Source: an uncultured Chloroflexia bacterium
Lineage (GTDB): Bacteria > Chloroflexota > Limnocylindria > Limnocylindrales > CSP1-4
NCBI GenBank assembly: GCA_963824735.1
Contig: CAWGQH010000016.1
Coordinates: 133,032 to 197,031, forward strand
Length of the DNA stretch: 64,000 nt
Direction of reading: 5' to 3'
Every line of letters begins with the position of its first letter. Positions within the stretch are counted from its first letter, which is position 1. Both the position numbers and the translations under genes were made by a program. Of the stretch, positions 1 through 16,027 are shown piece after piece. The notes beneath the pieces were generated by a model, which had not been told where the DNA came from, did not search any database, and saw only the letters and a list, made by a program, of their open reading frames with translations.

Positions 1-2112
1 TTCGGCAACCCCGACGTCCGGGAAGGGGCGCTCGAGGCCGCCAGGAGCGCCTGCCTGCAGTCTCCCGGGCCGACCGTCCTCCTCGGCCACGCCATGGGCG
101 GCATCGTCGCCTACGACCTGCTCGCCACCGAGGAGTCCGAGGCGCTGGGCGTCGAGTCACTCCTGACGTACGGATCGCCCCTCGGGATTCCCAGCATTCG
201 AAAGCAGGTGGAATGGATCCACCCGCGAACCCCCTTCCCGACCGGCCTCCGCCGCTGGATCGACATCGCAACGGAGCTCGACTTCACCACGGTCGAGGGC
301 GAGCTTGCGAAGCTCTATCGGGCCCAGGATGGGCGCCGCGTCGAGAGCATCGTGATCCCGTCGCCGGAATCCGACCGGGGCAACGCGCACGACCCGCAGG
401 CCTACCTTGCGTCGGTCGTCCTCGCCGAGGCGGTGCTCGATCTACTGTCCGCGAAGGCCGGCGTCACGCCGGAGCTCGAGCCACCGGCCGACCAGGATCA
501 CGCCGGCGAACCGGTCCGCAGCATCGCCGCCGCCTCGCCGCCGGCTCCGGCACGCGAGGACGACGTCCCGATCGCCGGCACGCGCATCGTCGAGCGAACG
601 GCCTCAGCCGATTTCCCGCCGGTCGTTGCGCCGGGCTCCACGCACGAGCTGCTGGTCGCGGTCGCAGGGCTCGCGATCCATGCCCGGGCGGAGGCGCTTC
701 TGCCGTTCGCCGTGCCGGTAGACCAGCACGAGGTCACCCTCAAGGTCGGGGTCTACGCGGCCGACTTCGAGGTCCGCGCGATTGACGATGCGCGTCGAAC
801 GTGGACCGAGATGACGATCGACCTCGACGACGCCGAGCACGTCGCCGAAGCGCGCTTCAAGCTCACCGCTCACGACGGCGACGAGCAGCGTGAGAGCCCG
901 ATCTATATCTCCTTCTACCGCGGCAACCTGCCCGTCGGCCAGCTCTCCCTCGTCTGTTCCATCGATCCGCTGCACGAAATTCGACAGGCGCCGATCTCGG
1001 TCACGATCGGCGGCGCGAGCGACCCGGAGTACGTGCTCGTTGTCACGGATCGGAGCCAGGGGCCAAAGGGGGCCGGGCCGTTCGACATCTTCGTGAGCAA
1101 GGAGGGCGAGTACCTCAACAAGCCGCTCGGTTCGTTCCCGGTCGCCGTCGACGCGTGGGATTACGCACGTGCCCGCCTCGACGGCTTCCGCAAGGTGCGT
1201 GAAGAACCGACGACGGAGGACCGGATCCGGGCGGCCGAGTCCCTGGGCATCGAGCTCTGGCGCGACCTGCCCGAGGACTTCAAGCGGTTCTATTGGGACG
1301 AGGTGCACGAGCATCCCGGCGCGTCGCTCGCGATCTACTCGCAGGAGCCGTACATCCCGTGGGAGCTCATCAAGCCGCAGCGCGATGTCGGCGGCGAGGA
1401 GGACGGCTTCCTCGGTGCAACGCTGCGGATCGCGCGATGGAAGCAGGCGGTCCGCTTCCCCGATCCGCTGACGGTCACCGGCTTCTCGGTCATCGCACCG
1501 GTGTACGGACCCGAGTCCGGGAGCCGCCCCCTGCCAGGAGCGCAAGCGGAGGCACAACAGCTGATCGAGGAATTCGGCGCTGAGCCGGTCAGCGGCGAGC
1601 GAGCAGTCGTCCGCGAGATGCTCGAGTCGTCCAAGGGCATCCAGCTGATCCACTTCGCGGGCCACGGGGACTTTGATCCCGATGCGGCCGAGATCTCGGT
1701 CATCCGCCTCGCCGACTCGGCCCTCGTGCCGCGGGACCTGAGTCGAGCCCGGCTGGGCCAGACTGCGCACCCATTCGTGTTCCTCAACGCCTGCGAGGTC
1801 GGTGAGCAGGGCTGGGCGCTGACCAAGATCGGTGGCTGGGCCGAGGCCTTCACCGACATCGGGTTCTCCGGCTTCATCGGGCCCTACTGGGCGGTGAACG
1901 ACCGGATCGCCCGGAAATCGTCGCTGCTCTTCTATCGCTCCCTGTCGGCAGGTCTGACGGTCGGCGAAGCGGTCCGCCAGATCCGCCTCCAGTTCTACGC
2001 CGATCCCGACGACGCGGGTCACCCGAGCTGGCTCGCATACACGCTCCACTGCCAGCCGAACATCCACATCCAGATGCCGGTGCCGGCGGTCGCGACGAGA
2101 GGAGAAGACTGA
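1..2112 (+). CDS. alpha/beta-hydrolase-like + CHAT (caspase-like protease) domain protein, 5' end cut by the window
   Basis: Frame 1 is open from nt 1 (FGNPDVREG...), so ORF 94..2112 is truncated by the window edge. N-terminal part: lipase-like elbow LLGHAMGG (nt 79-102), TYGSPLG, GNAHD. C-terminal part: IHFAGHG (His codon 1663-1665) and VFLNACEVG (Cys codon 1792-1794), the CHAT/caspase-type His-Cys dyad. Confidence 0.8.
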   Translation, partial: FGNPDVREGALEAARSACLQSPGPTVLLGHAMGGIVAYDLLATEESEALGVESLLTYGSPLGIPSIRKQVEWIHPRTPFPTGLRRWIDIATELDFTTVEGELAKLYRAQDGRRVESIVIPSPESDRGNAHDPQAYLASVVLAEAVLDLLSAKAGVTPELEPPADQDHAGEPVRSIAAASPPAPAREDDVPIAGTRIVERTASADFPPVVAPGSTHELLVAVAGLAIHARAEALLPFAVPVDQHEVTLKVGVYAADFEVRAIDDARRTWTEMTIDLDDAEHVAEARFKLTAHDGDEQRESPIYISFYRGNLPVGQLSLVCSIDPLHEIRQAPISVTIGGASDPEYVLVVTDRSQGPKGAGPFDIFVSKEGEYLNKPLGSFPVAVDAWDYARARLDGFRKVREEPTTEDRIRAAESLGIELWRDLPEDFKRFYWDEVHEHPGASLAIYSQEPYIPWELIKPQRDVGGEEDGFLGATLRIARWKQAVRFPDPLTVTGFSVIAPVYGPESGSRPLPGAQAEAQQLIEEFGAEPVSGERAVVREMLESSKGIQLIHFAGHGDFDPDAAEISVIRLADSALVPRDLSRARLGQTAHPFVFLNACEVGEQGWALTKIGGWAEAFTDIGFSGFIGPYWAVNDRIARKSSLLFYRSLSAGLTVGEAVRQIRLQFYADPDDAGHPSWLAYTLHCQPNIHIQMPVPAVATRGED

Positions 2113-2918
2113 TGACTGACGGGCTCGACGCGCGCCCTGAGCGACGGCTCTCCGCGGCCGGCGGTCCCGCACCCGTCGACGACGACACGATCCAGTCCCT
2201 TGCCGAGGAGATCGAGGAGGACGAGGAGCGCGGCGGATCGGAGAGCGACGCGGCGCCATTCGACCTCGGGATCCCCGAGCCGCGGGCGATCGATCTCCGG
2301 AAGGTCTGGAAGCTCGCCGGACAGAAGCCGGATGCGCAGATCCTCGCCGCACTCGGTCCGAATGTGCCGGTGCTCCTGTCGCACAGCATCACGGCTTTCC
2401 CCGTCGGCGCAGGCAAACCGCCGCGCGTCTGGGGCATCCGGTACGGCAGTCAGCTCTTCGGGATCGACGCCCGCACGGTGAGCGTGCAGCCGACGACCGA
2501 GCTGCTCGACGTGCTCACCGTCGGCGCCGAGGCCGAGCTCGCCGTCGGCCTCGCGGGCGAGCTCTCGGTCCCCGACGCCGTCGGCGCCGCGATCGAGTCG
2601 GTGCCGGGTGTTGCCCTGAACGACGCACGGGTTGCGGCATCGCTCGACGAGTCGGCGAAGCTCAGGATCCGGTTCACGCTGTCCGTGCCGAAGGTGATCG
2701 CGGGTACCGAGGCGCGCGGCGGCGCGCGCTGGCAGCTGTACGCGCAGGATCGCCGGCTCGACGGCCACCAGGCGATGCTGCAGACGCTGCTCGTTCCGAA
2801 GGGGACAAAGCGAATCCGGACCGAGATCGTGGCATCAGTGGCCGCGGCGGGTTGGTTCGGCCCGCGCGAGTGGCGCTTCGAGACCGAGACCTTCGACCTC
2901 GCCCTCGACGGGCTGTGA
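2112..2918 (+). CDS. hypothetical protein, translationally coupled to the upstream CHAT gene
   Basis: ORF 2112..2918. Its ATG overlaps the upstream TGA (TGATG, nt 2110-2114). The first ~75 aa are acidic and low-complexity (EEIEEDEERGGSESD); the C-terminal part has alternating hydrophobic, strand-like character. I recognise no motif. Confidence 0.6.
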   Translation: MTDGLDARPERRLSAAGGPAPVDDDTIQSLAEEIEEDEERGGSESDAAPFDLGIPEPRAIDLRKVWKLAGQKPDAQILAALGPNVPVLLSHSITAFPVGAGKPPRVWGIRYGSQLFGIDARTVSVQPTTELLDVLTVGAEAELAVGLAGELSVPDAVGAAIESVPGVALNDARVAASLDESAKLRIRFTLSVPKVIAGTEARGGARWQLYAQDRRLDGHQAMLQTLLVPKGTKRIRTEIVASVAAAGWFGPREWRFETETFDLALDGL

Positions 2919-2921
2919 CCC

Positions 2922-5310
2922 TCAGCGGGAGGAGGTCGACGATTTTCCGCGCCCCATGAACAGCTCGGCGAGGAGGAACGCGAGGACGCTGACCCCGAAG
3001 ACTTGACCTGCTTCGACGTCACCTAGTGGCTTGACGAATGCCTCATACACGTTGTCGGCGACGACGATGGACAACGGTCCCAGGGTCATGCCCAGGACGA
3101 GAACAACTGGCCACCTGGAGATGTCCCCGGCGGGTGCCCGCAACGGCGGCACGTACTGTTCGATGAGCGCTCCTGCAATGGAGGCGGTGAAGATCGTAAT
3201 GACGGCCAGGACAAGCAGCGGAACGATGTTGTCGTTGAAGTATTGCTCCCCGCCTTCAGCATCTTGAGGCAAGGGAAGCTTGGACAGCTGAAGCAGCCCG
3301 AGACCGCCGACGAGCAGCGCACCGGCGAAGAAGCCGCGTCCAATGGCGGCAGTGCGGTTCGGCGCCTGGCGATTCGCCATCCAGTCGCCGGGTCGCGGCG
3401 CCGCCTTCGCCGTGGGGGCGCCGGAGGTCGCGGATCGCGTGGCGGTCGCTCCCCCGGCCGTTTTCGAGGAGCCCATCGCCGACGCAGCTCCACGAGTCTT
3501 CCTGCCCGGACGAGCCGCTCGCCGGCGAGCCGGCGGTGGCGCCCTTCGTGGCACCGGCTGCTCCGGCGCCCGTCGCTCCCGCCACCTTTGGGTCGACCTG
3601 GCCGGCCGTTGCGTCGCGCTCCGCCCGGAGCTCGGCCTCGAGCCGGCGGCGCTCCGCCTTCAAGCGGTCAACCTCGTCCGAGATCAAGTGGCGCTGTGTC
3701 TCGAGCCGGGCCGCCTCGGCGGCGCTGGCCGCGGCGGCCTCCGTGCGCTCTCGTTCCTCCTCGTGCCGGGTCGCCTCGGCCGCAGTGGCCCGCTCGTGCT
3801 CGGCGGCGTGCTCCGCCTCCAGCCTGCGCCGCTCCTCCTCGGCCAGCCGAGCCGCCTCCGTCTCGGCAGCCAGTCGATCGCGCTCTTCGACAGCCCGGCG
3901 CTCACGTTCCCTCGCCTCGTCGAGTTCCACGCGCAGCCGCTCGCGCTCGGCCGCGGCGGCAGCCTCCGCTTCCGCAACCTCGCCCGCCGGCGCGGCTCCT
4001 GCCTGCCCGGGCGACAGCGGCTCGCCCCGTTCGATGACGGTCGGCGCTGACGGCGCGTCGGCGGGCGCAGCCGACTTGGTCGTCGCCAACGCCGCGACCG
4101 TCGCGGCGACAGCGGCCGTCTCCGGATCGGCGCCCGCCTTCACCGCATCGGCCTCTGCCTTGGCGGCCGCGACGGCCACCGTCGGGTCAGGCTTCTGTTC
4201 ACGTGCAGGAGCGTGCGCCGGGACCTCGAACAGCAGTCCGTCCTGCACACGCATGAACAGAACCGGCGTCGCCCACTCCACGTCGTTCTCGTCCGCATAG
4301 ATCGCCTTGCGCGCCTCGGCCATTGCCGAGTCGACCGGGTAGCCATCCGCCAGCGCGGCGTAGAACTCCGACGCGAACACGATGGCCGAGCGGTCCGTGA
4401 TCTCGAACTGCATGCCGATGACGGCGGGGATCTCCCGCTCGATCAGGCTGGTCGCCACGCCGGAGAACGGATCCTCGACCGAGCTCCGACCTCCCTCGCA
4501 GGCGTTGAGCACGGCCAGTCGCAGCGAGACTTCGTCCTGCAGGATCGTGCCCAGCTGGACGCCGCTGATCCGCCGGGACCGGCCTTGGTCATCCTCGAAG
4601 AGCACGACACCGTCGTCCGCGTCGTGGTCGTAGCCACCATGCCCGATGTAGTGGAGGACGTGATAGTCGGCTTGGCGCAGCTGGCGCTGGAGGGCTCGCA
4701 GTGTCGGCGTCTCGAGCCAGTCGATGGCCACGGCGCCCGACTGAACGAGCGGCGCGAGCGCCTGACCGAGCTTCGCCTTCTCGGACGCGACATCGATCGG
4801 CTCCGCGTCGGACGGTGCCGAAACAACCCCGATGATCCGCAGCGGCAAGGCGATCTGCAGCGGCCGCTTGGCCTTCGGGAGGTCCAGGTAGCGCACGATC
4901 GGTGTCCATGTCGAGATCGACATGAAGCTCGGATGGTCGTACAGGTACTCCCACGGGACCTGGCTGAGCTCGGGCGCGCCGGTCAGTGACAGGGTGATCC
5001 GCAGACCGCGGTTCTCGGTCCGCGCATCCGCGAACGACGAGCGGAAGAGCTCCTTGACGTCGCCGTCGAACAGGGACGAGAACAGGCGCCCGCCGAAGTC
5101 CTTGGCGAGCTCCATCTCGGGCGACTCGACGCGGCGCTTGCCCCGCCGCGTCCGACCGACCTTCAGGACGAAGTTCTCGAGCTCGATGTCGCTGAACGGC
5201 AGCTTGAACCGACCGAGCGCTTCACCGGATGGACCGGTTGCCACGACGCGGTAGGTGCCGGCAGACAACCCCCGATCGATACGCAGCCGGAACTCGGAAT
5301 AGGCGGTCAT
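2922..5310 (-). CDS. CHAT domain protein with Glu/Arg-rich helical linker and C-terminal 4-TM domain (one frame break as assembled)
   Basis: ORFs 3256..5403 and 2922..3554 lie in different frames. The likely start is ATG 5310 (MTAYSEFRLRIDRG). LHYIGHGG (His codon 4639-4641) and AVLNACEGG (Cys codon 4498-4500) form the CHAT dyad. A ~110-aa Glu/Arg/Ala-rich segment spans roughly 3600-3990. Four hydrophobic helices are encoded at about 2925-3340 in the second frame. A 1-nt change joins the two frames, for example in the C5 run 3451-3455. Confidence 0.7.
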
Positions 5311-5480
5311 GAGACCGCCTCGCGGCTGTCCGTGGGACCGATCCCCACTCGATCCATGTCCAATGCCCCTGGGCAGTTTTCCCGTGGCGGCTCCCCGAGC
5401 CACCTCCGTTGTGCGAAAACCGTATTCCCGGTGTCAATCAAATTTGTGACACTTGCCGGTGCAGCGCTCGGCGTACCCCG

Positions 5481-6470
5481 TCAGGCGCCCCCGGCGGCAT
5501 CCGCGAGGATGGACAGGTCGCCTGCGAGCCGGTCCGCCACACCCTCCGCGACTGCTTCGCCGGCGGATCGCTCGAGACCGAGCAACGCCGAACCGAGCAC
5601 CGGCGGGGCATCCAGGCGCAGGACCCTGGCGGCCGGCGCCGCATTCGCGACGGCCGCAGCCAGTCGCCGGTGGAACGCGGGGTCCTCTGCACGGAAGACG
5701 CCGCCCGCGAGCACGACGTCGGGGTCCAGCCGCCCGAGTCGCAGCCGCCTGATCAATGCCGCGGCCATCACCCCGAGCTCGTCTGCGAGCCGGTCCACGA
5801 TCTCGCGAGCGACCGCGTCGCCCGAGACCGCGGCCGCGAACACGACCGGCGACAGGTCGCCGAGGCGCTCAGCCGCCAACCTCCCCGTGTAGAACGCTCG
5901 AACGACTGCCCCCGGCGATGACAACCCGAAGTGGGCGGGCACGAGCTGCTCGAGACTCGTCCGCGGGCCGCGGCCGTCGCGCGCCCGGACCGCCGCGGCC
6001 TGAGCCGCCAGCCCGACGGACGTTCCCCCGCCCCAGTCACCCGAGATGTCGCCTACCCCGTCGAACCGGGCAACCCGGCCATCTGGCGCGACTCCGACGC
6101 CGTTGACGCCCTGGCCGCAGATCAGGGCGATCCCCCACGGCCGGCGGCTCCCGGCGCGGAGGGCCGCCATCGTGTCGTTGACGACGACGACCTCGCGGGC
6201 GATCCCCAACCGCGCGATTGCGCGCTCCAACAGCCGCACGTCGCTGGCGTAGTCGGCACCGGCGAGGGCAAAGACACCGACATCCGCCGGACCGTCGACC
6301 GACGCCCCGACATCGCCCGCGAGCCGCTCGAGCCGCGCCATGCCCTCGTCGAGGCCGACCGCCTGGTGGGAGATCGTCGGCCCACGGACGGCCGTCAGCA
6401 GCGCTCCATCGTCCGCGACGAGCGCGGCATCGGTCTTCGAGTTTCCGCCGTCGACCGCGAGGACTACCAC
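5481..6470 (-). CDS. BadF/BadG/BcrA/BcrD-type ATPase (N-acetylglucosamine-kinase-like)
   Basis: ORF 5481..6782 trimmed to GTG 6470 (VVVLAVDGGNSKT), which overlaps the upstream stop at 6464-6466. Motifs: VDGGNSKT, ICGQGVNG, GDWGGG. Confidence 0.75.
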   Translation of the reverse strand: MVVLAVDGGNSKTDAALVADDGALLTAVRGPTISHQAVGLDEGMARLERLAGDVGASVDGPADVGVFALAGADYASDVRLLERAIARLGIAREVVVVNDTMAALRAGSRRPWGIALICGQGVNGVGVAPDGRVARFDGVGDISGDWGGGTSVGLAAQAAAVRARDGRGPRTSLEQLVPAHFGLSSPGAVVRAFYTGRLAAERLGDLSPVVFAAAVSGDAVAREIVDRLADELGVMAAALIRRLRLGRLDPDVVLAGGVFRAEDPAFHRRLAAAVANAAPAARVLRLDAPPVLGSALLGLERSAGEAVAEGVADRLAGDLSILADAAGGA

Positions 6471-7087
6471 GGCACGGTTTCGACCGGCGCCACACCGAGC
6501 TCGTCGATTCCGACATAGGTCACCCCGTCGTCGGCGGCGCTGGCGAGCAGCCGCTCGACGGTGGTCGGTGTCACGACCGGCCAGCCGTGGAGCAGGACCA
6601 CCGCTCCATCGCCCACGCCCTGGATCCCCTCGCGAACGCGTCGTTCCAGCGCTTCGGCGGTCGCGTGTTCGGCCCAGTCCTCGCCATCGACGTGCCATCC
6701 CACGTGCCGGTAGCCGGCTGCCGTGATCGCACCGAGCACCCGCGGATCTGATGCTCCGTCGCCGAACGGGCAACGGAACCACGGCCGTGGGTCGACCCCG
6801 CAGGCCTGGCGGATCGCTTCCTCGGCGCGCTCGACGTCGTCAGCGATCCCTTCGTCGGTGAGATGCGACATGCGCGCGTGGTAATGGCCGTGACTGCCGA
6901 TCACGTGGCGACCGTCGACGAGCGCCCGCGCCACCGTAGGAACCGATTCGACCCAGCGGCCCTGCAGGAAGAACGTCGCCCGGGTCGCCCCGGCAGCAAG
7001 CACCTCGAGCAGCCGCTCGGTCCCGCCCGGGTTCGGGCGGTCGGCGTGCTCCGCGTCGAACGTCAGCGCGACGCGGATCGGAGCCAC
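6464..7087 (-). CDS. polysaccharide deacetylase (NodB/CE4 family)
   Basis: ORF 6464..7087. NodB-type motifs: ALTFDAEH, GSHGHYH, RCPFGDG. Confidence 0.85.
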   Translation of the reverse strand: MAPIRVALTFDAEHADRPNPGGTERLLEVLAAGATRATFFLQGRWVESVPTVARALVDGRHVIGSHGHYHARMSHLTDEGIADDVERAEEAIRQACGVDPRPWFRCPFGDGASDPRVLGAITAAGYRHVGWHVDGEDWAEHATAEALERRVREGIQGVGDGAVVLLHGWPVVTPTTVERLLASAADDGVTYVGIDELGVAPVETVPW

Positions 7088-7099
7088 GGCAGTCCCGCC

Positions 7100-8212
7100 C
7101 TACTTCTCGACGCCGGTGATGACGATGCCTCGTGTGAAGAAGCGCGAGGTAAGCAGGAACGCGACGACCGGGATGATCATCGTCATCAGCGTACCGGCCT
7201 GGATCAGCTCGGGGTTGCGGTAATGGATGCCGTTGAACCGCGACAGGCCGACGGCCAGCGGCTGGAGATCGGGCTGCGCCGACAGGTAGATCAGCGGGCC
7301 GAAGAAGTCGTTCCACGAGTAGACGAGGTGGAAGATCGCCACCGCGACGACCACCGGCCAGGCCTGCGGAAGGAGCACCGACACGAGGGTCCGGAACGGA
7401 CCTGCTCCATCGATCGCGGCCGCCTCGTCCATCTCGGTCGGGATCGTCATGAAGTACTGGCGCATGAGGAACACGTCGAAGGCGTTGGCGAAGAACGCCG
7501 GGACGAGCAGCGGCAGCCACGTGCCGACCCAGCCGAGCTCCACGAACAGCGTGTACGTCGGGATGATCGTCACCGCGTACGGCAGGAAGATCGTCGCGAT
7601 CAGGAGCGTGAACAGCGCGTTCCTGCCGGGGAAGCGGAAGCGCGCGAACCCGTACGCCACGAGCGTGCACGAGAGCACCGTCCCGATCGTCCCGATGATC
7701 GCCAGCGCGAACGTGTTGAACAGCAGGCGCGGATAGTCGATCAGGTCCCAGACTTCGGCAAAGTTCTCGAGGTGCGGGGCGAACGTCCACGCCGGCTCGA
7801 GCGTCCGCCACGATCCCTCCCATGCGATCGGCGGGGCCGAGGGATTGCCCGGATCCACGAACTGGCTCTCGGTCCGCCCCGGCTTCAGCAACGCGAGCTG
7901 GCGGGTCGCGCCGTCGAGCGGCACGTTGTAGACGTCGAGCGTCTCGCCTTCGTATTCGAAGGTCGCCGGGTCGGCTGGGTAGACCGGCGATCCCGGTTGG
8001 CTGATCTGGTCCGTGGACTTGAGGGCGAACGTCGCCGAGCGCAGCAGCGGCGACAGGAACGCGGCGAGGAACAGGACGGCGATGAGCGTGAGCAGGAATG
8101 ACTTCGGCCGGTCGCCGCGCTCAGGTGGCCGGCGGCGGTCGGACGCCCCTCGCCGCCTGAACATGCCGGTCAGCCGCCCTCCCGTGTCCTGCAGCCCGAC
8201 GCCGATCGCCAC
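7100..8212 (-). CDS. carbohydrate ABC transporter permease
   Basis: ORF 7100..8212; the start may instead be the internal MFRRRG at 8164. Multi-TM protein with a large first external loop. EAA loop: MDEAAAIDGAGPFRTLVSVLLP. Confidence 0.85.
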   Translation of the reverse strand: MAIGVGLQDTGGRLTGMFRRRGASDRRRPPERGDRPKSFLLTLIAVLFLAAFLSPLLRSATFALKSTDQISQPGSPVYPADPATFEYEGETLDVYNVPLDGATRQLALLKPGRTESQFVDPGNPSAPPIAWEGSWRTLEPAWTFAPHLENFAEVWDLIDYPRLLFNTFALAIIGTIGTVLSCTLVAYGFARFRFPGRNALFTLLIATIFLPYAVTIIPTYTLFVELGWVGTWLPLLVPAFFANAFDVFLMRQYFMTIPTEMDEAAAIDGAGPFRTLVSVLLPQAWPVVVAVAIFHLVYSWNDFFGPLIYLSAQPDLQPLAVGLSRFNGIHYRNPELIQAGTLMTMIIPVVAFLLTSRFFTRGIVITGVEK

Positions 8213-9163
8213 TCAGCGCGCCTCGCCCGCGTAGTACACCCAGCGCCGAGCGCCCCAGAACAGGAGCAGCGTGAGCAGCAGCGTGATCGCGAACAGCACC
8301 CACGCGAGCGTCGCCCCGTAGGACATGTCCTGGAAGGCGAAGAAGTTCTTGTACAGGTACAGGTTGTAGAAGAGCGTCGAGCCGCCCGGTTGCCCGGTCC
8401 CGTTCTTGAGGACCAGTGGCACGAGGAAGTACTGGAGCACCTCGACCGCTGCGAGCACCAGCGTGTAGAACACGACCGGCGACATCAGCGGGATCGTCAC
8501 GTTTCGGAGGCTTGCCCACGCCCCGGCGCCGTCGATGCGGGCCGCGTCGTACAGCTCGGTCGGGATGCCCTTGAGCCCGGCGAGGTAGACGATCACGCCG
8601 GCCCCGATCCCCCAGACGCCCATGATCACGAGGCCCGGGTAGATCCAGGTCGTGCTCTCGAGCCAGTCCGGCGGATGTTCGATGCCGATGAGCTGCAGGA
8701 AGTTGTTGATCCAGCCGTTGCCCTCGGAGCCGAGCATGCCCTGCCAGATCAGCACGCCGGCCACGAACGGCACGACGTAGGGCATGAAGAAGAGGACGCG
8801 GAACGCGCCAGTACCGCGCAGGTGCCGCGAGTGGAGCAGCAGTGCGACCACGAACGGCAGAGCGACTGCGATCGGCAGCGCGATGAGGGCGTACCTGAAC
8901 GTGACGCTCAGCGAATGGATCGCCGTCGGGTCGTTGAGCAGCTTCTCGTAGTTGCGCAGGCCGACGAACTGGAGCGGCTCGGCCTGCTCCAGGTTGATGT
9001 TGGTGAAGGTGAAGCCGAGCGTGGCGATCATCGGGCCCAGCGTGAAGACGAGGAACCCGATGATCCACGGCGAGATGAACACGTAGCCCCACAGCGCGCG
9101 CCGCCACGCCAGCCCACGGGGGCGGGCGAGGCGGCGCGAGCGGGGCTGGGTCAGGACGGCCAT
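8213..9163 (-). CDS. carbohydrate ABC transporter permease
   Basis: ORF 8213..9163. Six TM helices. EAA loop: LYDAARIDGAGAWASLRNVTIP. Confidence 0.9.
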   Translation of the reverse strand: MAVLTQPRSRRLARPRGLAWRRALWGYVFISPWIIGFLVFTLGPMIATLGFTFTNINLEQAEPLQFVGLRNYEKLLNDPTAIHSLSVTFRYALIALPIAVALPFVVALLLHSRHLRGTGAFRVLFFMPYVVPFVAGVLIWQGMLGSEGNGWINNFLQLIGIEHPPDWLESTTWIYPGLVIMGVWGIGAGVIVYLAGLKGIPTELYDAARIDGAGAWASLRNVTIPLMSPVVFYTLVLAAVEVLQYFLVPLVLKNGTGQPGGSTLFYNLYLYKNFFAFQDMSYGATLAWVLFAITLLLTLLLFWGARRWVYYAGEAR

Positions 9164-9176
9164 CGCCTGGGGTCGC

Positions 9177-10629
9177 TCAGCCCTCCTGGTCCCAGATCGC
9201 TTGAAGCTGTGTCGTGAGGTCCTGGACCTCGGTGTCGATATTGAGTCCCGCGTTGGACTGCCACTTCGTTCCGAACTCGATCAGCTTGTCGAAGCTCTCG
9301 TTGTACGCCGGCATGTACGACTCGAAGTTCGGCACGTCGGCGTAGTTGACGCCTTCCTTGGCGACGTTCCAGTCGACCTCGTTCGGTGAAGCTGTCCTGC
9401 AGCGTGGTGAAGAACGCGTCCTGTGCCTCCGGCCGGGCGGGCATGCCGCCGTACGTCGTGAGCAGCGTGTCGGACGCGTCGCCGAGGAGATACGTCAGCG
9501 CCTCGAATGCCTCGTCGGGGTGCTTGGTGTCCTTGTGGATGCGGAACGTGTCGGCGTTGAACGCCGCGGTCGTCGTGCCGTTGTACGACGGCGTGGCCGC
9601 GAGGTCCCAGTCGTCGCCGGAGTCGCCGACGCCGTACGTCGACCACAGGTAGTTCGGGCTCATCGAGACGTTGCCGGTGAAGAACGGGTAGTCGCTCGGG
9701 TTGAGCTCGTCGCTCTCGAACTGGGGTCCCGTCATCGAGTAGTGGTCGGTCCACATGCCGTCGTAGAACGCCTTCCAGCCCGCGACCCACGCGTCCGGGA
9801 TCTCGACGGTCTTGCCATCGGCGCCACCGGCGAGCTGACCGGGACCCCAGTAGGCACCGGTCTGGCGGAGGTCGTCGCGCTGCGGCTCGAGGCCCCACTG
9901 GACGATGTTCTCAGGATCGAACCCGTCCTGGGTCGCGTCCTTGCCGTTCTGGTCGACCGTCAGCAGCTTCGCGACCTCGCGGATGGTGTCCCAGTCCCAC
10001 GGTCGCTCCGTGCCGTCCGGCATCGTGTAGGTCCCGTTCCACTCGTGCGGCGGTTCGTTGAGTCCCGCCTCCTCGAAGTGGCTCTTCTTGTAGAAGAGGG
10101 CCGAGGGATAGATCGCGAACGGGATGCCGAGCTGGCCCTCGCCGCCGGTGTTGTACAGCTCGACCATGTTGTCGGGGTACTGTCCGAGGTCATAGCCGGT
10201 CGAATCGATGAGCGGCTGGAGGTCGAGCCACTGGCCGTGGAACGCCTCGGCGCCGCCGATGCCGGTCGGTCCGACGATGTCAGGTGGATTCCCGGCTGCG
10301 ATCTGGGTCGCAAGCGCGTCGCGGGCGCCCTCGTACGGGACGGCTTCGAACGTGAGATGGATGTTCGGGTGGGAGGCATTGAATTCCTCGACCACCTGCT
10401 GCTCGACCTCGACCTGCTCGGGGGCGTCACCGCCACCGAGGCAGCAGTACCAGCGCAGCTCGACGACCTCGCCGTTGCCGGCCGGCTGCGACGCCGGCGG
10501 CGCCGCCGACGAGCCGGGCGCCTGGCTGGCCCCGGGTGCGCTCGTCGTCGTCGACTGGCCGCAGGCAGCGACGAGCAGGGCGGCGGCCGCTATCAGAACC
10601 AGCAGCCTCGTCATTCGCGGGGTTCGCAT
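9177..10629 (-). pseudogene. ABC transporter sugar-binding lipoprotein (single frame break as assembled)
   Basis: SD AAGGAGGAGG precedes ATG 10629 (MRTPRMTRLLVLIAAAALLVAACGQ, lipobox). After ...LQDSFTE the frame breaks near TT 9382-9383. The other frame continues EVDWNVAKEGVNYADVPNFESYMPAYNESFDKLIEFGTKWQSNAGLNIDTEVQDLTTQLQAIWDQEG to TGA 9177-9179. The listed ORF 9151..11349 is a read-through artefact. Confidence 0.85.
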
Positions 10630-10663
10630 CGATCGGTCCTCCTCCTTGAGTCCGTTCGGGCGC

Positions 10664-11474
10664 CTAGGAGCCGACGGGTCCTCCCGTTCGCAGTCCGGCC
10701 ACGAGCGCCGGCTCGTGATCGCTCGGCCGGTTCGAACGCACCACGATGCGCTCGACGTAGTAGCGGGTTCGGTCGCCGCGGACGAACGTCCGGGCGAATT
10801 CGATGGGGTCGCCGTCTTCATCGAAGGCGACGCCCTCGATGACGAGCGCGGGGGTCCGCGGGGGCTGGTCGAGCAGCCGCGCCTCGCGCGTTCGCAGCAG
10901 CACGGGTTCGAGCGATTCGCGGGCGCGCGCGATGTGCGTCGCCGTACTGCTCGGTCAGGACGTCGTACAGCGAGTTGTGCTCGAGGTCGGAGGCCAGGAG
11001 GCCGGGAAACCGCTCGGCCGGCAGGTGGACCTGTTCGAGCAGGAGCGGTTCCCCCGAGGCGACCCGGAGGCGCTCGACGTACACGATCGGCGAGCCGACC
11101 TCGAGGTTCAGCGCGCCGGCGACGACCTCGCCCGCCGACTCGGGCCGGGCCGCGACGAGCCGTGTCTCGGGGTCGAGGCCGCGGCGCTGCATCTCCTCGG
11201 TGAAGCTGAGGGTGTCGGCGAAGTCGCGCTCGATGCGCGCCTTGAGGGCGAACGTGCCGCGGCCGCGGGTGCGCTCGAGTCGACCCTCGCGCGCGAGCTC
11301 GCTGAGCGCCCGCCGGATCGTGATGAGGCTGCAGCTGTAGCGGATGCACAATTCGCGCTCGGGCGGCAGCCGGTCACCCGGCGCGATCTCGCCCGAATCG
11401 AGAGCCGCCTTGAGGTGGAGGTACACCTGGTGATGGAGCGGGACAGGACCGAGCTCGAGGCGGAAGCGCGCCAT
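10664..11474 (-). pseudogene. GntR/HutC-family transcriptional regulator (single frame break as assembled)
   Basis: ATG 11474 (MARFRLELGPVPLHHQVY). Winged helix: PPERELCIRYSCSLITIRRALSELAREG. The UTRA-like C-terminal domain continues in ORF 10664..10903 (RESLEPVLLRTREARLLDQP...FARTFVRGDRTRYYVE) after a break at the GGG run 10921-10923. Confidence 0.8.
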
Positions 11475-11608
11475 CGGCAGACCGGCTCCTCCGTTCGACG
11501 GGGCAAGCATCGGCCGCGCCTGGGGCTTGGCCGAGATTGTTCATAATGTTATAAGCATTGTGTCAAGGACCCGGCACGTGCCGGTCGGTGGCGAGGTGGG
11601 GAGGCGAG

Positions 11609-12869
11609 ATGGGCGTCAAGGTGACGGTCGTCGGTGGCGGGAGCACGTACACGCCCGAACTGGTGGAGGGCGTGGTCCGCCGCGCCGACCGCGTGCCCGT
11701 CGACGAGCTCGTCCTGCTCGACGTCGATGCCGGAGCGCCTTGCGGTCGTCGGCGGCCTGGCCGAGCGGATGCTCGCGAAGGCCGGCTGGCCCGGCCGCCT
11801 CGTCAGGACGACCGATCGCGATGCCGCGCTGGACGGCGCCGATTTCGTGCTCGTGCAGCTCCGCGTCGGCGGCCAGGCCGCGCGCCTGCGCGACGAGACC
11901 ATCCCGCCCCGCTTCGGCGCGGTCGGCCAGGAGACGACCGGTCCCGGCGGGCTGGCAAAGGCAATCCGCACCGTGCCCGTGATCCTGGAGCTCGCCGAGG
12001 CCGTGGACCGCCGGGCTGCACCCGGGCACTGGATCGTCGACTTCACGAACCCGGTCGGGATCGTGACCCAGGCACTGATCGACGGGGGCCACCGCGCGCT
12101 CGGGCTGTGCAACGTGGCGATCGGGATGCAGCGCTGGCTGGCCGACTGGCTGGAGGTGGAACCCGAGCGGGTCAGCCTCGAGCACGTCGGCCTGAACCAC
12201 CTGAGCTGGGTCCGGGCCGTGCGCGTGGACGGCCGCGACGTGCTGCCCGACCTGCTGGCGGACGACGCCGAGCGCATCGCCGAGCACACCGGGCTGCCGG
12301 TGGACCTCGTTCGGTCCGTGGGCGCCATCCCGTCCTACTACCTGCGCTACTACTACCTGACCGAGACGGTCGTGCGGGAGCAGCGGGACGGCCACAGTCG
12401 TGCGAAGGACGTGATGGACATCGAACGCCAGCTCCTCGAGATGTACCGCGATCCGGCGCTCACCGAGAAGCCGGCGTTGCTCGGCCAGCGGGGAGGCGCG
12501 TACTACAGCGAGGCCGCGGTCGACCTCATCGCGTCACTGCACGACGGACGCGGTGACGTGCAAGTCGTCGACGTCCGCAACGACGGCGCGCTGCCCGACG
12601 TGTCGGCCGATGCAGTGGTCGAGATCCCGTCGCGGATCGACCGCGATGGCGCCCATCCCCTGCCCCTCTCCCCGCTCGCGCCGGCCGAGCAGGCCCTGCT
12701 CCGCGAGGTCAAGGCCTACGAGCGGTTGGCCGCCGACGCGGCCCGAATCGGGGATCGCGACGCGGCACTGCGAGCCCTTCGGGCGAACCCGCTGGCCCGG
12801 GCGGTGGCCGATCCGGGGCGCCTGCTCGAGGAGCTGCTGGCGGACCCGGCCGGGGTGAGCGGCGGATAG
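11609..12869 (+). pseudogene. GH4-family 6-phospho-beta-glucosidase (single frame break as assembled)
   Basis: SD GGGGAGG precedes ATG 11609 (MGVKVTVVGGGSTYTPELVEG, NAD-binding). The frame breaks near CC 11730-11731. The rest lies in ORF 11634..12869 (FTNPVGIVTQA, GLCNVAIG, NHLSWV). Confidence 0.85.
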
Positions 12870-13211
12870 ACGACGGCCGCGGGCCCGGCGTCCAGCGCCC
12901 ACCGCGCTTCGTGCCCATTCACCACGCGAATGCAGACCAGGCATCATGCGGTCGCCCGCCTTCTCGCCCATTCACGAGGTGACTCGGATGAATGCGAGAG
13001 GCGCGCCGGGGAGTCTGAACTAGCCGCGCGCGGCTTGGCACGGCGCATGGTGCGTCCGTTGCATTCGCCACGTGCATCGCTAGCGAGCGGCGACCCGCGA
13101 ACCCGAGCAGGCGCCCGGGCACGCCGATCGCAACGCGTTGTTTGCGAAACTTCGCAAAGTCCGAACCATTATTCATACCGGCGCGGGCCGCCTTTCGGGC
13201 ATCCTTGGTTG

Positions 13212-16027
13212 GTGCAGACGCCTCCGCAGCGCGTGACCCGCCAGGGACGCCCGCGCAACGACCCCGCGCGCCCCACGACGGCCGGCTGGTTCGGACTCAT
13301 CATCTTCTTCTTCCTCGCCGGCATCGGTGCCATCGGCGCACTCGCGACGATCAGCCTCTATTCCGCGCTCGCCTCGAACCTCACTCCGGTCGAGGCCATG
13401 CAGGACTACGAGCTGCCAGAGGAGTCGATCGTCTTCGATCGCAACGGCACCGAGCTCGCCCGCTTCGGGGAGTTCAAGCGCGAAGTCGTCGAGTTCGACG
13501 AGATCCCGCCGATCCTGCTCGACGCGACGACGGCCGTCGAGGACAAGACGTTCTGGGAGAACGCCGGCTTCGATCCCGTCGCCATCTTCTCGGCCGGCCT
13601 CGACTCGCTGCGTGGCCGCGGCCGCGGCGCCTCCACCGTCACCCAGCAGCTGACTCGAATGCGACTCCTCGACGACGAACTGCTCCAGGACCCGGACCGA
13701 CTCGCCGAGCGCAAGCTCAAGGAGATCATCCAGTCGATCCGGCTCACGCAGCACTTCGCGGGGGAGCCGGGCAAGCGGGACATCATCACCGCCTACCTGA
13801 ACCAGATCTACTACGGCAACCAGAGCTACGGCGTGAAGGCGGCCGCCCGCTCGTACTTCGGCATCAACGATCTCAGCGAGCTCACGCCGGCCCAGGCCGC
13901 GGTCCTGGCCGCGCTGCCGAAGTCGCCCTCGAACTACGACCTCGTGCGCAACGCCGTCGAGGAGTGCCTCGAGCCCGGCGAGAACGAAGGCGAATGCGCG
14001 AAGACCCAGCTCGTGGTGCCACCGGACACAACCGTCGTGGAGCGCCGGAACCAGATCCTCACCCTCATGGCCGAGGACGACCGCACGCCGATGTCCGACG
14101 GCCAGTACACCAGCGAAGAGCTGCTTGCCGCGCGCGACGAGCCGGTCGTGCTCGTCCGCCAGACCACCGAGCGCTGGCAGGCGCCGCACTTCGTGTGGCG
14201 CGTGCGCGATGAGCTGTTCACGAAGCTGTGCGGCGAGGACGCCACGTGCCCGCAGCTCGATCGCGGTGGTCTGCGCATCACGACCACGCTCGATCTCGAG
14301 GTCCAGGAGACCGCGGAAAAGTGGGTCAAGGCTGCGGCCGTCGTGCCGTTCCAGGACAACCCGCGGCAGGCAGCCAGGCGCCTCGGCCTCACGTACGAGG
14401 ACTGGATGGCCAACCTGGCCGACAAGCGGCTGCGCAACGGCGCGCTCGTCGCAATGGACTACCAGACCGGCGAGCTGATCGCCTATGTCGGCAGCGCCGA
14501 CTACTACTCGACCAAGCACTCGAAGCGCTTCCAGCCGAAGTACGACGTGGTCGGGAACGGCTACCGCCAGCCGGGTTCGGCGTTCAAGCCGTTCAACTAC
14601 GCGATCGGGATCGACTCGGGCAAGCTCACCGCCGGCACCGTGCTGATGGACGTCGGCACCGACTTCGGCAACGACTACACGCCAAACGACGCCGACCGCC
14701 TCGAGCGCGGACCGCTCACTGTCCGAAATGCACTGCAGTTCTCGCTCAACATCCCCTCGGTCAAGGCCCTGCAGGTCAACGACCCGGCGACGGTCTTCGA
14801 GCGCGCCCAGGAGTTCGGGCTGCGCTTCCGGGGCGACTCGAGCGATGCCGGCCTGTCGCTGGCGCTGGGCACGCAGGAAACGCCGCCGGTCGACCTCGCC
14901 ACCGGTTACGCCACGATCGCCAATGGCGGCCGGTACATCGGGAACACCACGATCCTCACGGTCAAGGATCGCGACGGCAAGGACGTCGCCGATCCGTACG
15001 AGCCGCCCGAGCCGACGCAGGTCATCAGCCCGCAGGCGGCCTACATCACCACGAACATCCTGGCCGGCAACACGAACCGCAACGTGAACCCGTTCTGGGG
15101 CGAGTTCTCGCTCCGTGGCCCCGATGGTGACCGCCGGCCGGCCACGCTCAAGACCGGCACGAACAACGACGCCAAGGACCTCAACGCCTACGGCTACATC
15201 GCGCCGCCCACCCGCGAACAGCGCGAGGACGGGCAGTACGCGCTGGTCGTCGGAGCGTGGAACGGCAACAGCGACAACAGCGAAGTCAGCACGCCCAACA
15301 ACCCGGTGTTCTCGATCGAGGTGTCCACGCACGTCTGGCAGGGCTTCCTCCAGGAGACGACCAAGGACTGGCCGATCCGCAACTTCCGGCGGCCCGAGGA
15401 AGGCCTGGTGGAAGTCACGATCGACCCGCTGACCGGCTACCTGCCGCAGCGCGGTGACGAGGGCGTCGAGGAGTGGTTCATCGCGGGCACCGAGCCCAAG
15501 AACCGGCTTCCGCGCGAAGCGTGCGGGCGCGACGTCCTCGAGCTCCTGGCCTACGAGTCGAAGTTCGACAACTGGCTGGAGTGGGACCGCGACTGGCTGC
15601 GCCGTGCACGGCGCGGGCCGGGCACGGTGGGAGGTCCCGACCGCACAGCGGTCAGCTACTTCTACAACAATCGCTTCAACCCCTTCGGCCGCGCATGGGG
15701 CCCGATCATGGGCCAGAACTGCGCCGAACCGACGCCGGAACCCTCCTGCGTTCCGCTGCCGACGCCGGATGCCAGCGGCGTGATCCCGTCATTCGAGCTC
15801 CCGGAGCCGTCGGGCGATGCACCGGCCCTGGTCGCGTGCCCGCCCGAATCGGCGACGCCGGAGCCGAGCGCGCCACCCAGCGAGGAGCCGTCGCCGCCAC
15901 CGTCAGCGAACCCACGCCCGAACCGGAGCCCACACCGACGCCCGAGCCGGATCCCACGCCGACGCCCGAGCCGACGCCGACGCCAACGCCAACGCCACCG
16001 GACAGCTCCGCCCCACCGCCGCCCTGA
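13212..16027 (+). pseudogene. class A penicillin-binding protein (PBP1A-type transglycosylase/transpeptidase; frame break in C-terminal tail)
   Basis: Start at GTG 13212 or TTG 13209. TM anchor: WFGLIIFFFLAGIGAIGALATISLY. GT51 motifs: EDKTFWENAGFD, RGASTVTQQL. Transpeptidase motifs: SAFKPF (SxxK), SLN, KTGT. The frame breaks at about 15906. The native Pro/Thr tail EPTPEPEPTPTPEPDPTPTPEPTPTPTPTPPDSSAPPPP ends at TGA 16025-16027. Confidence 0.85.
15929..15976 (+). repeat. 24-nt tandem duplication inside the Pro/Thr-rich PBP tail
   Basis: cccacaccgacgcccgagccggat (15929-15952) is followed directly by cccacgccgacgcccgagccgacg (15953-15976), then by ccgacg/ccaacg hexamer repeats. Confidence 0.6.

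Follow-up and report, generated by a model that had tools for sequence, protein, structure and literature searches.

A CHAT protease gene coupled to a conserved unannotated ORF: a candidate protease-gated effector module in an uncultured Chloroflexota bacterium

Introduction

Protease-gated death effectors are increasingly recognized as a dominant principle of immunity in prokaryotes and as the evolutionary equivalent of caspase-gasdermin signaling, and few effector families have been defined. According to Kaur et al. (2020; PMC7159879), the caspase-superfamily peptidases of nucleoside triphosphate-dependent conflict systems are always accompanied by an α/β-hydrolase gene. Evans et al. (2025; PMC12642450) report that one protease-associated α/β-hydrolase is a zymogen that is activated by a caspase-like protease at two R|G sites (R73 and R117). 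The protease-licensed effectors in that work include gasdermin, EACC1, Pepco, MBL and the α/β-hydrolase. The subject of the present analysis is a locus at the left end of a 64,000-nucleotide stretch of DNA from an uncultured Chloroflexia bacterium (contig CAWGQH010000016.1), referred to as the window. The locus consists of a gene for a hydrolase-CHAT protein (gene A), an open reading frame (ORF) coupled to it (ORF B) and, on the opposite strand, a gene for a second CHAT protein (gene C) and an ORF with four transmembrane (TM) helices (ORF D).

With a probability of roughly 0.45, A and B form a protease-gated effector module of the prokaryotic conflict-system kind in which B is a latent effector that would be cut after Arg40 and would then insert into the membrane. 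An earlier annotation made from the letters of the window (the sequence-only reading) had proposed that a hydrolase-CHAT protein, its partner and a membrane-anchored CHAT protein form a system that matches no named one. None of the proteins encoded in the module corresponds to a named defense system; the general kind, however, has been described (PMC7159879, PMC12642450). Since both the combination of a caspase-like protease with a latent effector and the pairing of a hydrolase with a caspase are published, the module does not lie outside all known systems. The protease-gated effector logic and the α/β-hydrolase-caspase pairing are already known. What appears to be new is the B family, which is absent from Pfam 2025, NCBIfam 2026, PADLOC 2023 and the PDB, together with its candidate N-terminal R|G site and the fused hydrolase-CHAT architecture.

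Results and Discussion

Conservation and neighborhoods of the A-B pair

The stop codon of A and the start codon of B overlap as TGATG (2110-2114), and reading the window again confirmed this coupling, which had been noted at the outset. Both A and C carry a CHAT domain, as had been proposed (Pfam PF12770; E = 1.7e-17 and 64.2 bits for A, E = 5e-26 and 92.3 bits for C, gathering cut-off 24 bits), and the catalytic cysteine codons that had been picked out in A (1792-1794) and C (4498-4500) are both correct. ORF B is a real, conserved gene. It has 56 close homologues of 260-290 residues and 47-96% identity, all of them annotated as hypothetical, and it is 94-100% conserved among strains. A profile of the family retrieved 167 cluster representatives (50%-identity clusters) at E ≤ 1e-3 from among 1.84 billion proteins; apart from truncated fragments, these are mostly stand-alone proteins of about 250-300 residues. 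The sequence-only reading had staked its proposal on the partner being conserved, and this family settles that point in its favor.

Neither B nor D had a match in Pfam, NCBIfam or PADLOC. The Pfam search of B extended to E ≤ 0.1, and 43 distant homologues of B had no Pfam match at E ≤ 0.01 and no PADLOC match. Profiles of B built from two alignments (A2 and A3) gave no match at E ≤ 10 among all PDB sequences. The locus suggests that a further, unannotated effector family exists; it has about 170 sequence clusters, and most of those seen to date are from uncultured soil Chloroflexota.

Related loci, numbered L001 onward, fall into two groups by the identity of B. In group 1 (B at least 59% identical), A lies directly upstream of B, overlapping it or within a few bases, in the window and in L001, L002/L008, L004-L006 and L009; the same-strand hydrolase-CHAT proteins of L002, L004 and L009 are 880-970 residues long. 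Of the three genes that had been expected to travel together, A and B are found side by side in every group-1 relative with sequence context, whereas C is not constant. It is adjacent in the window and in L004, 7 kb away in L002 and unseen near L009, and the membrane-anchored CHAT protein is therefore regarded as a variable part of the module. Group 2 (B about 50% identical) comprises L003, L011-L015 and L017. The B gene of L011 overlaps the end of a gene on the same strand whose 1501-residue product combines a CHAT domain (4.7e-24) with a NACHT-like STAND nucleoside triphosphatase (NTPase; NPHP3_N 6e-9, AAA_16) and has repeats at its C-terminus. After B come the gene for a 274-residue multi-TM protein and then CHAT genes on both strands. 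At the other group-2 loci the upstream protein is unconfirmed as one ORF, and L003 and L013 are fragmented there. Outside these groups, B is preceded on the same strand by a short CHAT protein of 473 residues in L016 and by a 968-residue protein with a C-terminal CHAT domain (2e-40) in L024, and in L022 it comes after a protein with a weak EAD5 match.

B therefore accompanies CHAT proteases across at least four protease architectures, and the constant element of these loci is a CHAT protease followed by B. This reinforces the protease/substrate logic of the sequence-only reading, since homologues of B follow CHAT proteins that differ as much as the hydrolase-CHAT protein of the window and the CHAT-NACHT protein of L011. 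The neighborhood otherwise varies, with transposases and Fic in L004, metabolic genes in the window, and a gene for an extracytoplasmic function (ECF) sigma factor in L007 and L020. A variable genomic setting of this sort (L002, L004, L020, L007) is as expected for an accessory module.

Some further features of these loci were recorded. The group-2 loci (8.8-16.5 kb of each) form a dense CHAT cluster. Past the multi-TM gene of L011 there is a convergent gene for a 676-residue DUF7363 protein (as scanned in L003, a weak CHAT match at 0.015 and a sub-cut-off TCAD7 match at 0.028), and further on a C-type CHAT protein with PD40/Tricorn propellers and a CHAT protein of about 770 residues. In L009 (8902-12702), two papain-family (Peptidase_C1) proteins, of which one has DUF346 repeats, are encoded after the A-B pair on the same strand. 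A 596-residue protein upstream of the B homologue P0151 (L018) was considered for a caspase-like His/Cys dyad and rejected: Pfam gave nothing and hhalign against the A family gave a probability of 0.07. A relationship between D and the 274-residue multi-TM protein of the group-2 loci was rejected as well, as the comparison gave no similarity.

A fused hydrolase-CHAT protein

A model of the full-length A protein was calculated with AlphaFold2 (AF2) from a 31-sequence alignment and had a predicted local distance difference test (pLDDT) score of 79. It comprises an α/β-hydrolase domain (residues 1-268), a disordered linker (270-309), β-sandwiches (312-500), a helical segment (503-553) and the CHAT domain (560-810). 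The middle region, to which the sequence-only reading could assign nothing and for which it had suggested structure prediction, is thus modeled as β-sandwiches and a helical part. Besides CHAT, Pfam gave weak PGAP1 and thioesterase matches. A Foldseek search with the model returned Csx29/TPR-CHAT (5e-11), separase, SAVED-CHAT and DdvA (2.5e-6), which we assign to the C-terminal part of A, and the Archaeoglobus fulgidus lipase and, more weakly, PGAP1, which we assign to the N-terminal part. Weak matches to chains and complexes of complement C3/C4 probably reflect the β-sandwich middle.

The CHAT dyad of A, H673 and C716, is invariant in the A-family alignment (A4), where it stands in a GHG ... 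NAC context. The same cannot be said of the hydrolase. The lipase-like module that had been proposed for A has the hydrolase fold, both in the AF2 model and from its Foldseek matches to lipases, but the nucleophilic serine is lost: the nucleophile elbow of the window protein is GHAMGG, with an alanine codon (91-93) in place of serine. Relatives of A at no more than 63% identity keep GHSMG[ST], DFATV and GHDP (alignment A4), which may be read as the catalytic triad motifs of the hydrolase. Within the clade of the window protein, the serine is replaced by A, D, G or R, member by member. Many of the relatives that keep the serine, such as P0211 and P0228, also have an acidic insert with ERG at about residues 60-80 and [DE]R at about 95-110. 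The window clade has lost the ERG insert, the window protein reading ...GDLGRDGRAS... and DEQPEW, and no member of alignment A4 without the serine has the strict acidic-ERG motif. Judging from these motifs, the fused lipase-like hydrolase is catalytically degenerate in this genome.

Given the results of Kaur et al. (2020) and Evans et al. (2025), A therefore looks like a fused version of the α/β-hydrolase-caspase pair with a hydrolase effector that has decayed in the lineage of the window. The locus shows a natural fused form of this pair and, within one clade, the decay of the hydrolase effector while B stays. As in the modules of those two studies, a caspase-superfamily protease is coupled to a small protein of unknown function, and a lipase-like α/β-hydrolase is tied to the protease, here by fusion to the N-terminal side of CHAT. 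Candidate R|G motifs, present in the B linker and in the serine-keeping relatives of A, are shared with the LcCaspase-LcHydrolase pair of Evans et al. (2025), and relatives of B are joined to a STAND NTPase (L011). Unlike LcHydrolase, A of the window has neither the GxSxG nucleophile nor either of the R|G sites (at about 70 and about 117). A further difference from both sets of modules is that B is encoded downstream, and not upstream, of the protease.

B as a candidate protease-licensed effector

Alignments of the B family (A1 and A2) show a conserved N-terminal segment (residues 8-35, approximately), a variable acidic linker and a conserved core that is rich in invariant Pro, Trp and Gly. 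Inside the linker, which is disordered and otherwise variable, Arg40 is invariant and Gly41 nearly so (at least 90%). The acidic-ERG sequence of the B linker recurs in the hydrolase domain of the serine-keeping A relatives. The conserved N-terminal segment, the Arg-Gly pair in a disordered linker, the recurring acidic-ERG and the R|G precedent fit the pattern of a protease-licensed effector (PMC12642450). B is not among the ten protease-associated families listed in that study.

The AF2 model of B had a pLDDT of 71 and a predicted template modeling score (pTM) of 0.68. Residues 11-30 (pLDDT about 87-90) are modeled as packed onto a β core to which they add strands, a placement that resembles what is reported for the autoinhibitory fragment of EACC1. 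The remainder is a confident β core except for residues 127-152 and 164-192 (pLDDT below 50). The strongest β-amphipathic stretches of B in an alignment-averaged hydrophobic-moment scan (A2), residues 133-150 and 172-190, flank the low-pLDDT zone. A 24-nt tandem repeat at 2513-2564 (Tandem Repeats Finder (TRF), 2.2 copies) encodes an 8-residue L-x-V-G-x-x-x-E unit and forms the first of these amphipathic arms. The N-terminus of B is acidic and has no signal peptide; the protein would therefore act from the cytoplasm. Its first 60 residues contain no Cys, and the C-terminus belongs to the confident β core.

When the B model was searched against the PDB with Foldseek, 48 of the 50 matches listed, including the best 41, were β-pore-forming toxins of the leukocidin/gamma-hemolysin/NetB/CytK type. 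The putative stem had a pLDDT below 50 in the model used for this comparison, and the leukocidin/hemolysin likeness of B is taken as a lead and not as a fold assignment. There was no gasdermin among the top 50 PDB matches. Viral structures were considered as relatives of B and set aside, as they gave just scattered weak matches with no common family.

Membrane insertion is the most specific hypothesis for a cut B, because the model combines amphipathic arms with a flexible zone between them and the Foldseek result points to one toxin family. B is also a better effector candidate than the TM protein. A bolder version of this reading, which we consider doubtful, is that B represents a new family of intracellular hemolysin/leukocidin-like β-barrel pore-forming death effectors that an N-terminal pro-segment holds in a latent state and that CHAT proteases license by cutting at a conserved [D/E]xR|G site. 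If it were true, protease-triggered perforation of the membrane from within would have a third independent form beside those of gasdermin and EACC1/Pepco, and the family would work with at least three sensor architectures (hydrolase-CHAT, CHAT-STAND and short CHAT). A hemolysin-like protein that forms pores from the inside would also link the classical secreted toxins to cell-suicide effectors.

The same features of B may be read in another way. Separase-securin recognition is of the ExxR type, and B could be a regulatory partner of CHAT, such as a pseudosubstrate inhibitor, a chaperone or a securin-like adaptor, that binds by way of its acidic ExxR-like linker and either holds A in an inactive state or steers it to other substrates. 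The tight translational coupling, the constant co-occurrence with CHAT proteins, the resemblance of the invariant Arg in its acidic stretch to separase-type ExxR recognition and the predicted fold likeness between the CHAT domain of A and separase are consistent with this role. A conserved β core of about 230 residues with many invariant aromatics is, however, far beyond what a pseudosubstrate peptide needs. B also persists where A is deleted (L007) and where there is no CHAT nearby (L010), which is unexpected for a dedicated inhibitor. We regard a regulatory role as unlikely.

Proposed mechanism

The mechanism that we favor for the A-B pair is as follows. Gene A would encode a cytoplasmic CHAT protease that was ancestrally fused to a lipase-like hydrolase zymogen, inactivated in this genome, and the coupled ORF B would encode its latent effector. 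Once activated, CHAT would cut B after Arg40 in the acidic linker ([D/E]-x-R|G) and thereby remove the N-terminal segment of about 40 residues that is modeled as packed on the β core. The freed core (residues 41-268, approximately) would insert its amphipathic β arms into the cytoplasmic membrane from inside and so kill or arrest the cell, as a functional analogue of gasdermin or EACC1. Gene C would be a variable accessory with exchangeable membrane or sensor parts, possibly an upstream sensor or initiator protease. The domain identities, the coupling of the genes, the conservation of B and its recurrent link to CHAT proteins of differing architecture are observed; the cleavage at R40, the autoinhibition, the membrane attack and any role in defense we infer from the genes and models described above.

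Several observations weigh against this mechanism. Neither A nor B has a PADLOC or other defense-family match, and no activating signal or sensor could be identified in the version of the module found in the window, where the flanks are sugar-metabolism genes and not a defense island. In L010, B has no CHAT nearby. There, four unannotated genes lie upstream of B, and toxin-antitoxin-like gene pairs are present as well; none of these were scanned against a family library. Distant homologues of B have, in place of the ERG of the linker and about equally far from the first core strand, a less strict x-[F/H/M/Y/R]-G-G. The structure comparison that had been suggested for B did yield leukocidin/hemolysin matches (best E = 2.8e-4, probability 0.99), yet their TM-scores are only 0.25-0.30 with a root mean square deviation (RMSD) of about 16 Å, and searches of Pfam and of PDB sequences gave no sequence-level link between B and any pore-forming family. 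Finally, the local copy shows signs of decay, namely the lost serine and ERG sites of A, the frame break between C and D, and the deletion variant L007.

Comparison with other protease-gated systems and toxins

B matches none of the Pfam models for Pepco/Trypco, EACC1 or CATASP and, with 268 residues, is twice the size of Pepco (117 residues) or EACC1.

Bacterial gasdermin systems were reportedly described by Johnson et al. in 2022. Like a bacterial gasdermin, B is a cytoplasmic protein of about 260 residues encoded beside a CHAT or caspase-like protease, and the proposed sequence of events, from removal of an inhibitory peptide to membrane damage, is also alike. B differs in that Pfam, PADLOC and the top 50 Foldseek PDB matches contain no gasdermin match for it. 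Moreover, its candidate inhibitory peptide is N-terminal and not C-terminal, and it has no N-terminal Cys for palmitoylation.

With the α-hemolysins and leukocidins, B shares a similar size, a β-rich composition and a central flexible segment between amphipathic strands that resembles a pre-stem. In contrast to these toxins, it has an N-terminal pro-segment and neither a secretion signal nor sequence similarity, and it would act inside the producing cell.

The CHAT domain of A is, by its model, structurally closest to Csx29 of the type III-E Craspase. Switch-like proteolysis of an adjacent substrate, as in the Craspase and SAVED-CHAT systems, is proposed here as well; however, the locus contains no TPR, SAVED, gRAMP, CRISPR or cyclase genes, and B is unrelated to Csx30. 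Avs-like STAND systems differ as well in that no NTPase (NACHT or AAA) is found in A, B, C or upstream; one is present in the group-2 locus L011.

The CHAT protein DdvA is a transmembrane anti-sigma factor (PMC11506125). It is among the Foldseek matches of the CHAT domain of A and, like C, is a membrane-anchored CHAT protein. The anti-sigma domain of DdvA is N-terminal, whereas C has an N-terminal cytoplasmic CHAT domain and a C-terminal TM part, and there is no adjacent ECF sigma gene in the window.

Gene C, ORF D and the frame break

The catalytic motifs of C are YIGHGG and LNACEGG. The PADLOC matches at the locus, to SAVED_CHAT and BovA, cover the CHAT part of C only (SAVED_CHAT profile positions 122-286 of 498), and C was ruled out as a SAVED-CHAT protein or BovA on these grounds. 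The best NCBIfam match of C was HetF (3.7e-20), which was ruled out since its 71.8 bits compare with a cut-off of 1200.

The HetF match is one reason to consider that the locus belongs to ordinary cell biology, with C acting on envelope or division proteins like the cyanobacterial HetF, A and B taking part in protein turnover, and no conflict role. The many CHAT paralogues of Chloroflexota near these loci, the metabolic neighbors in the window and the absence of a known defense gene adjacent to the module there would all suit such a role. The HetF score falls far short of its cut-off, however, and the module is patchy and has varied neighborhoods, with deletions or rearrangements in L007 and L020 and with transposases and Fic beside it in L004. 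The CHAT-STAND coupling of B relatives and the weak TCAD7 match nearby are hallmarks of conflict systems. A housekeeping function for the whole locus is therefore judged improbable.

A convergent C-type CHAT gene follows B at a gap of 3-4 nt in the window and L001 and in L004-L006. C of L004-L006 is a single 630-residue ORF with the same N-terminal domain and CHAT, a Pro-rich linker, one TM helix and an extra C-terminal domain. In L002, 7 kb upstream, a C-type CHAT is fused to PD40/Tricorn propellers, and no C-type CHAT was seen near B in L009. C is thus a variable accessory with swapped C-terminal parts: a coiled coil with four TM helices, a Pro-rich linker with one TM helix and an extra domain, or PD40/Tricorn propellers.

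In the window, the open frames of C (3256-5403, first ATG at 5310) and D (2922-3554) overlap on the minus strand. The C/D alignment of the window, L001 and L020 showed that the extra T at 3486 of the window is missing in the other two and that, in its absence, the Glu/Arg segment of C reads straight into D. The other two sequences have private indels of their own (L001 at 3975/3992, 3351 and 3280; L020 at 3992, 3982 and 3561), and the site-by-site majority of the three is one intact ORF that encodes CHAT, coiled coil and four TM helices. Because of this majority, the frame break at 3486 is most simply explained as an assembly error or a strain-private mutation. All parts of the arrangement given in the sequence-only reading, from C through a Glu/Arg helix and a frame break to a 4-TM domain, are present; however, the break is private to this assembly and the 4-TM part is perhaps a separate gene. 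The 3-nt convergent junction of that reading is also real but separates the stop codons of B (TGA 2916-2918) and D (TCA 2922-2924), and not those of two CHAT ORFs.

D may be a gene of its own or the C-terminal domain of C. Homologues of D at 63-93% identity are called as proteins of 184-189 residues that start with MG[STA], and the start Met is conserved within a low-complexity stretch that varies elsewhere. In L007, D is retained (48-50% identical) though the CHAT and coiled-coil parts of C are gone. Two short-read contigs, P0252 and P0253, both stop 15-28 nt upstream of the D ATG. The conserved motifs of D are GRGF, LIEQxxPPLRxP and an MGRGK tail, all predicted to be cytoplasmic. Its invariant GRG motifs (residues 46-49, before TM1, and 175-178, in the C-terminal tail) bracket the 4-TM bundle in parts predicted to be cytoplasmic and could be further CHAT cleavage sites, although RG dipeptides are common in this high-GC proteome.

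Strain variation and decay

The ENA metagenome contig L001 is 98.7% identical to window positions 1-12920 and encodes an identical B protein. The two differ by 14 indels in 12.9 kb, and in L001 the frame of A changes within its 5' part. L020 is 96% identical to the window with 20 gap openings in 5.5 kb. More frame breaks, in A, B or C, are present in both L001 and L020. Single-base indels also break flanking housekeeping genes in near-identical metagenome contigs; with so many ORF-breaking indels, housekeeping genes included, the gene calls and frame breaks in these assemblies are not to be taken at face value. The syntenic locus of L007 (6745-9400), which shares the nagA flank and has a B that is 94% identical, is a deletion variant in which A is reduced to its first 143 codons or so and its last few. 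B and D are kept with the 3-nt convergent junction intact.

These observations raise the question of whether the copy in the window is a decaying relic, with a dead hydrolase, a frameshifted C/D and genes that are heading for loss, a view that is compatible with the ancestral function proposed above. It would account for the replacement of Ser by Ala and the loss of the ERG sites of A, the frame break at 3486, the loss of most of A and of all of the CHAT domain of C in the syntenic L007, and the further breaks in L001 and L020. In the window, however, the frames of both CHAT domains and of the complete B are unbroken, with all invariant residues in place, and the conservation of B among strains speaks for its maintenance. 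Each long-read metagenome assembly has indels of its own, which affect housekeeping genes too, and this is what assembly errors would produce. A relic in this genome is thus an improbable reading.

Divergence along the locus is uneven. Between the window and L001 there are 29 mismatches per 500 nt at 3000-3500, compared with 1-7 in other parts of A-B; in the comparison of the window with L007, B shows 94% identity and D only about 50%. From the predicted topology of D, the variable parts are TM1 and the outward-facing loops, and the invariant parts are the cytoplasmic loop LIEQxxPPLRxP..D..RW and the tail. The uneven divergence of B and D possibly reflects diversifying selection or recombination. 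In L020, about 1 kb beyond C, a second copy of the N-terminal domain and CHAT of C (about 1755-3083 in its own coordinates, 86% identical to window 4131-5452) was not called on that strand by the gene caller and is probably a duplicated, decaying paralogue.

Locus layout, host and flanks

The features of the locus are collected in Table 1. The window truncates gene A at its left edge by just 118 codons, since a full-length version of the same protein (P0201) has 821 residues.

Table 1. Features of the A-B-C-D locus in window coordinates.
Feature	Position	Strand	Details or basis
Gene A	1..2112	+	3' 703 codons of an 821-residue protein (P0201); open from nt 1, stop TGA 2110-2112
α/β-hydrolase domain of A (residues 119-268 of 821)	1..450	+	Sub-cut-off Pfam PGAP1 match (5.5e-5); AF2 fold; Foldseek lipases
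Middle of A: β-sandwich domains (residues 312-500), helical segment (residues 503-553)	580..1305	+	AF2 secondary structure
CHAT (clan CD, caspase-like) domain of A	1324..2076	+	His codon 1663-1665, Cys codon 1792-1794
ORF B	2112..2918	+	268 residues; ATG 2112-2114, TGA 2916-2918; coupled partner of A, candidate protease-licensed effector
Arg40-Gly41 codons of B	2229..2234	+	Candidate CHAT cleavage site
B residues 133-190, two β-amphipathic stretches	2508..2681	+	Hydrophobic-moment scan, pLDDT, TRF
ORF D	2922..3476	-	184 residues from ATG 3476, stop TCA 2922-2924; four TM helices
Predicted coiled coil of C, Glu/Arg/Ala-rich	3484..3963	-	Translation, tblastn mapping
Extra base (T, coding strand) between C frame and D frame	3486..3486	-	No counterpart in L001, L020
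Gene C: N-terminal domain 5310-4924, CHAT 4923-4174, then Ala/Pro-rich stretch	3964..5310	-	Pfam CHAT 5e-26

All relatives from GTDB genomes are metagenome-assembled genomes labeled uncultured Chloroflexia or Candidatus Limnocylindrales. The host, a soil bacterium represented by a metagenome-assembled genome, is therefore assigned to the Chloroflexota (Limnocylindria type), and the actinobacterial setting assumed by the sequence-only reading is abandoned. The same reading had suggested that a sensor or NTPase could lie upstream of the first nucleotide. L001 shows the 118 missing codons of A at that place and then an amidohydrolase (nagA-like), SIS, aldolase and further metabolic genes; no NTPase and no sensor gene was found in this region. 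To the right of the module are the ordinary sugar-metabolism genes that had been recognized there: a BcrAD/BadFG-type kinase, a polysaccharide deacetylase, a sugar ABC transporter and a GntR regulator.

Positioned between nagA/SIS-type genes and the kinase/deacetylase/sugar-ABC/GntR cluster, the module resembles an insertion into an amino-sugar utilization region. The right border is rearranged among strains, with L020 and L007 carrying an ECF sigma factor and unknown genes there. Promoter and terminator scans of window positions 1-6000 detected none, such scans being uninformative for a Chloroflexota host, and no tRNA genes or Rfam families were found anywhere in the window. A second 24-nt-period tandem repeat lies at 15914-15996 (3.2 copies, score 105) and is also read with periods of 6, 12 and 18.

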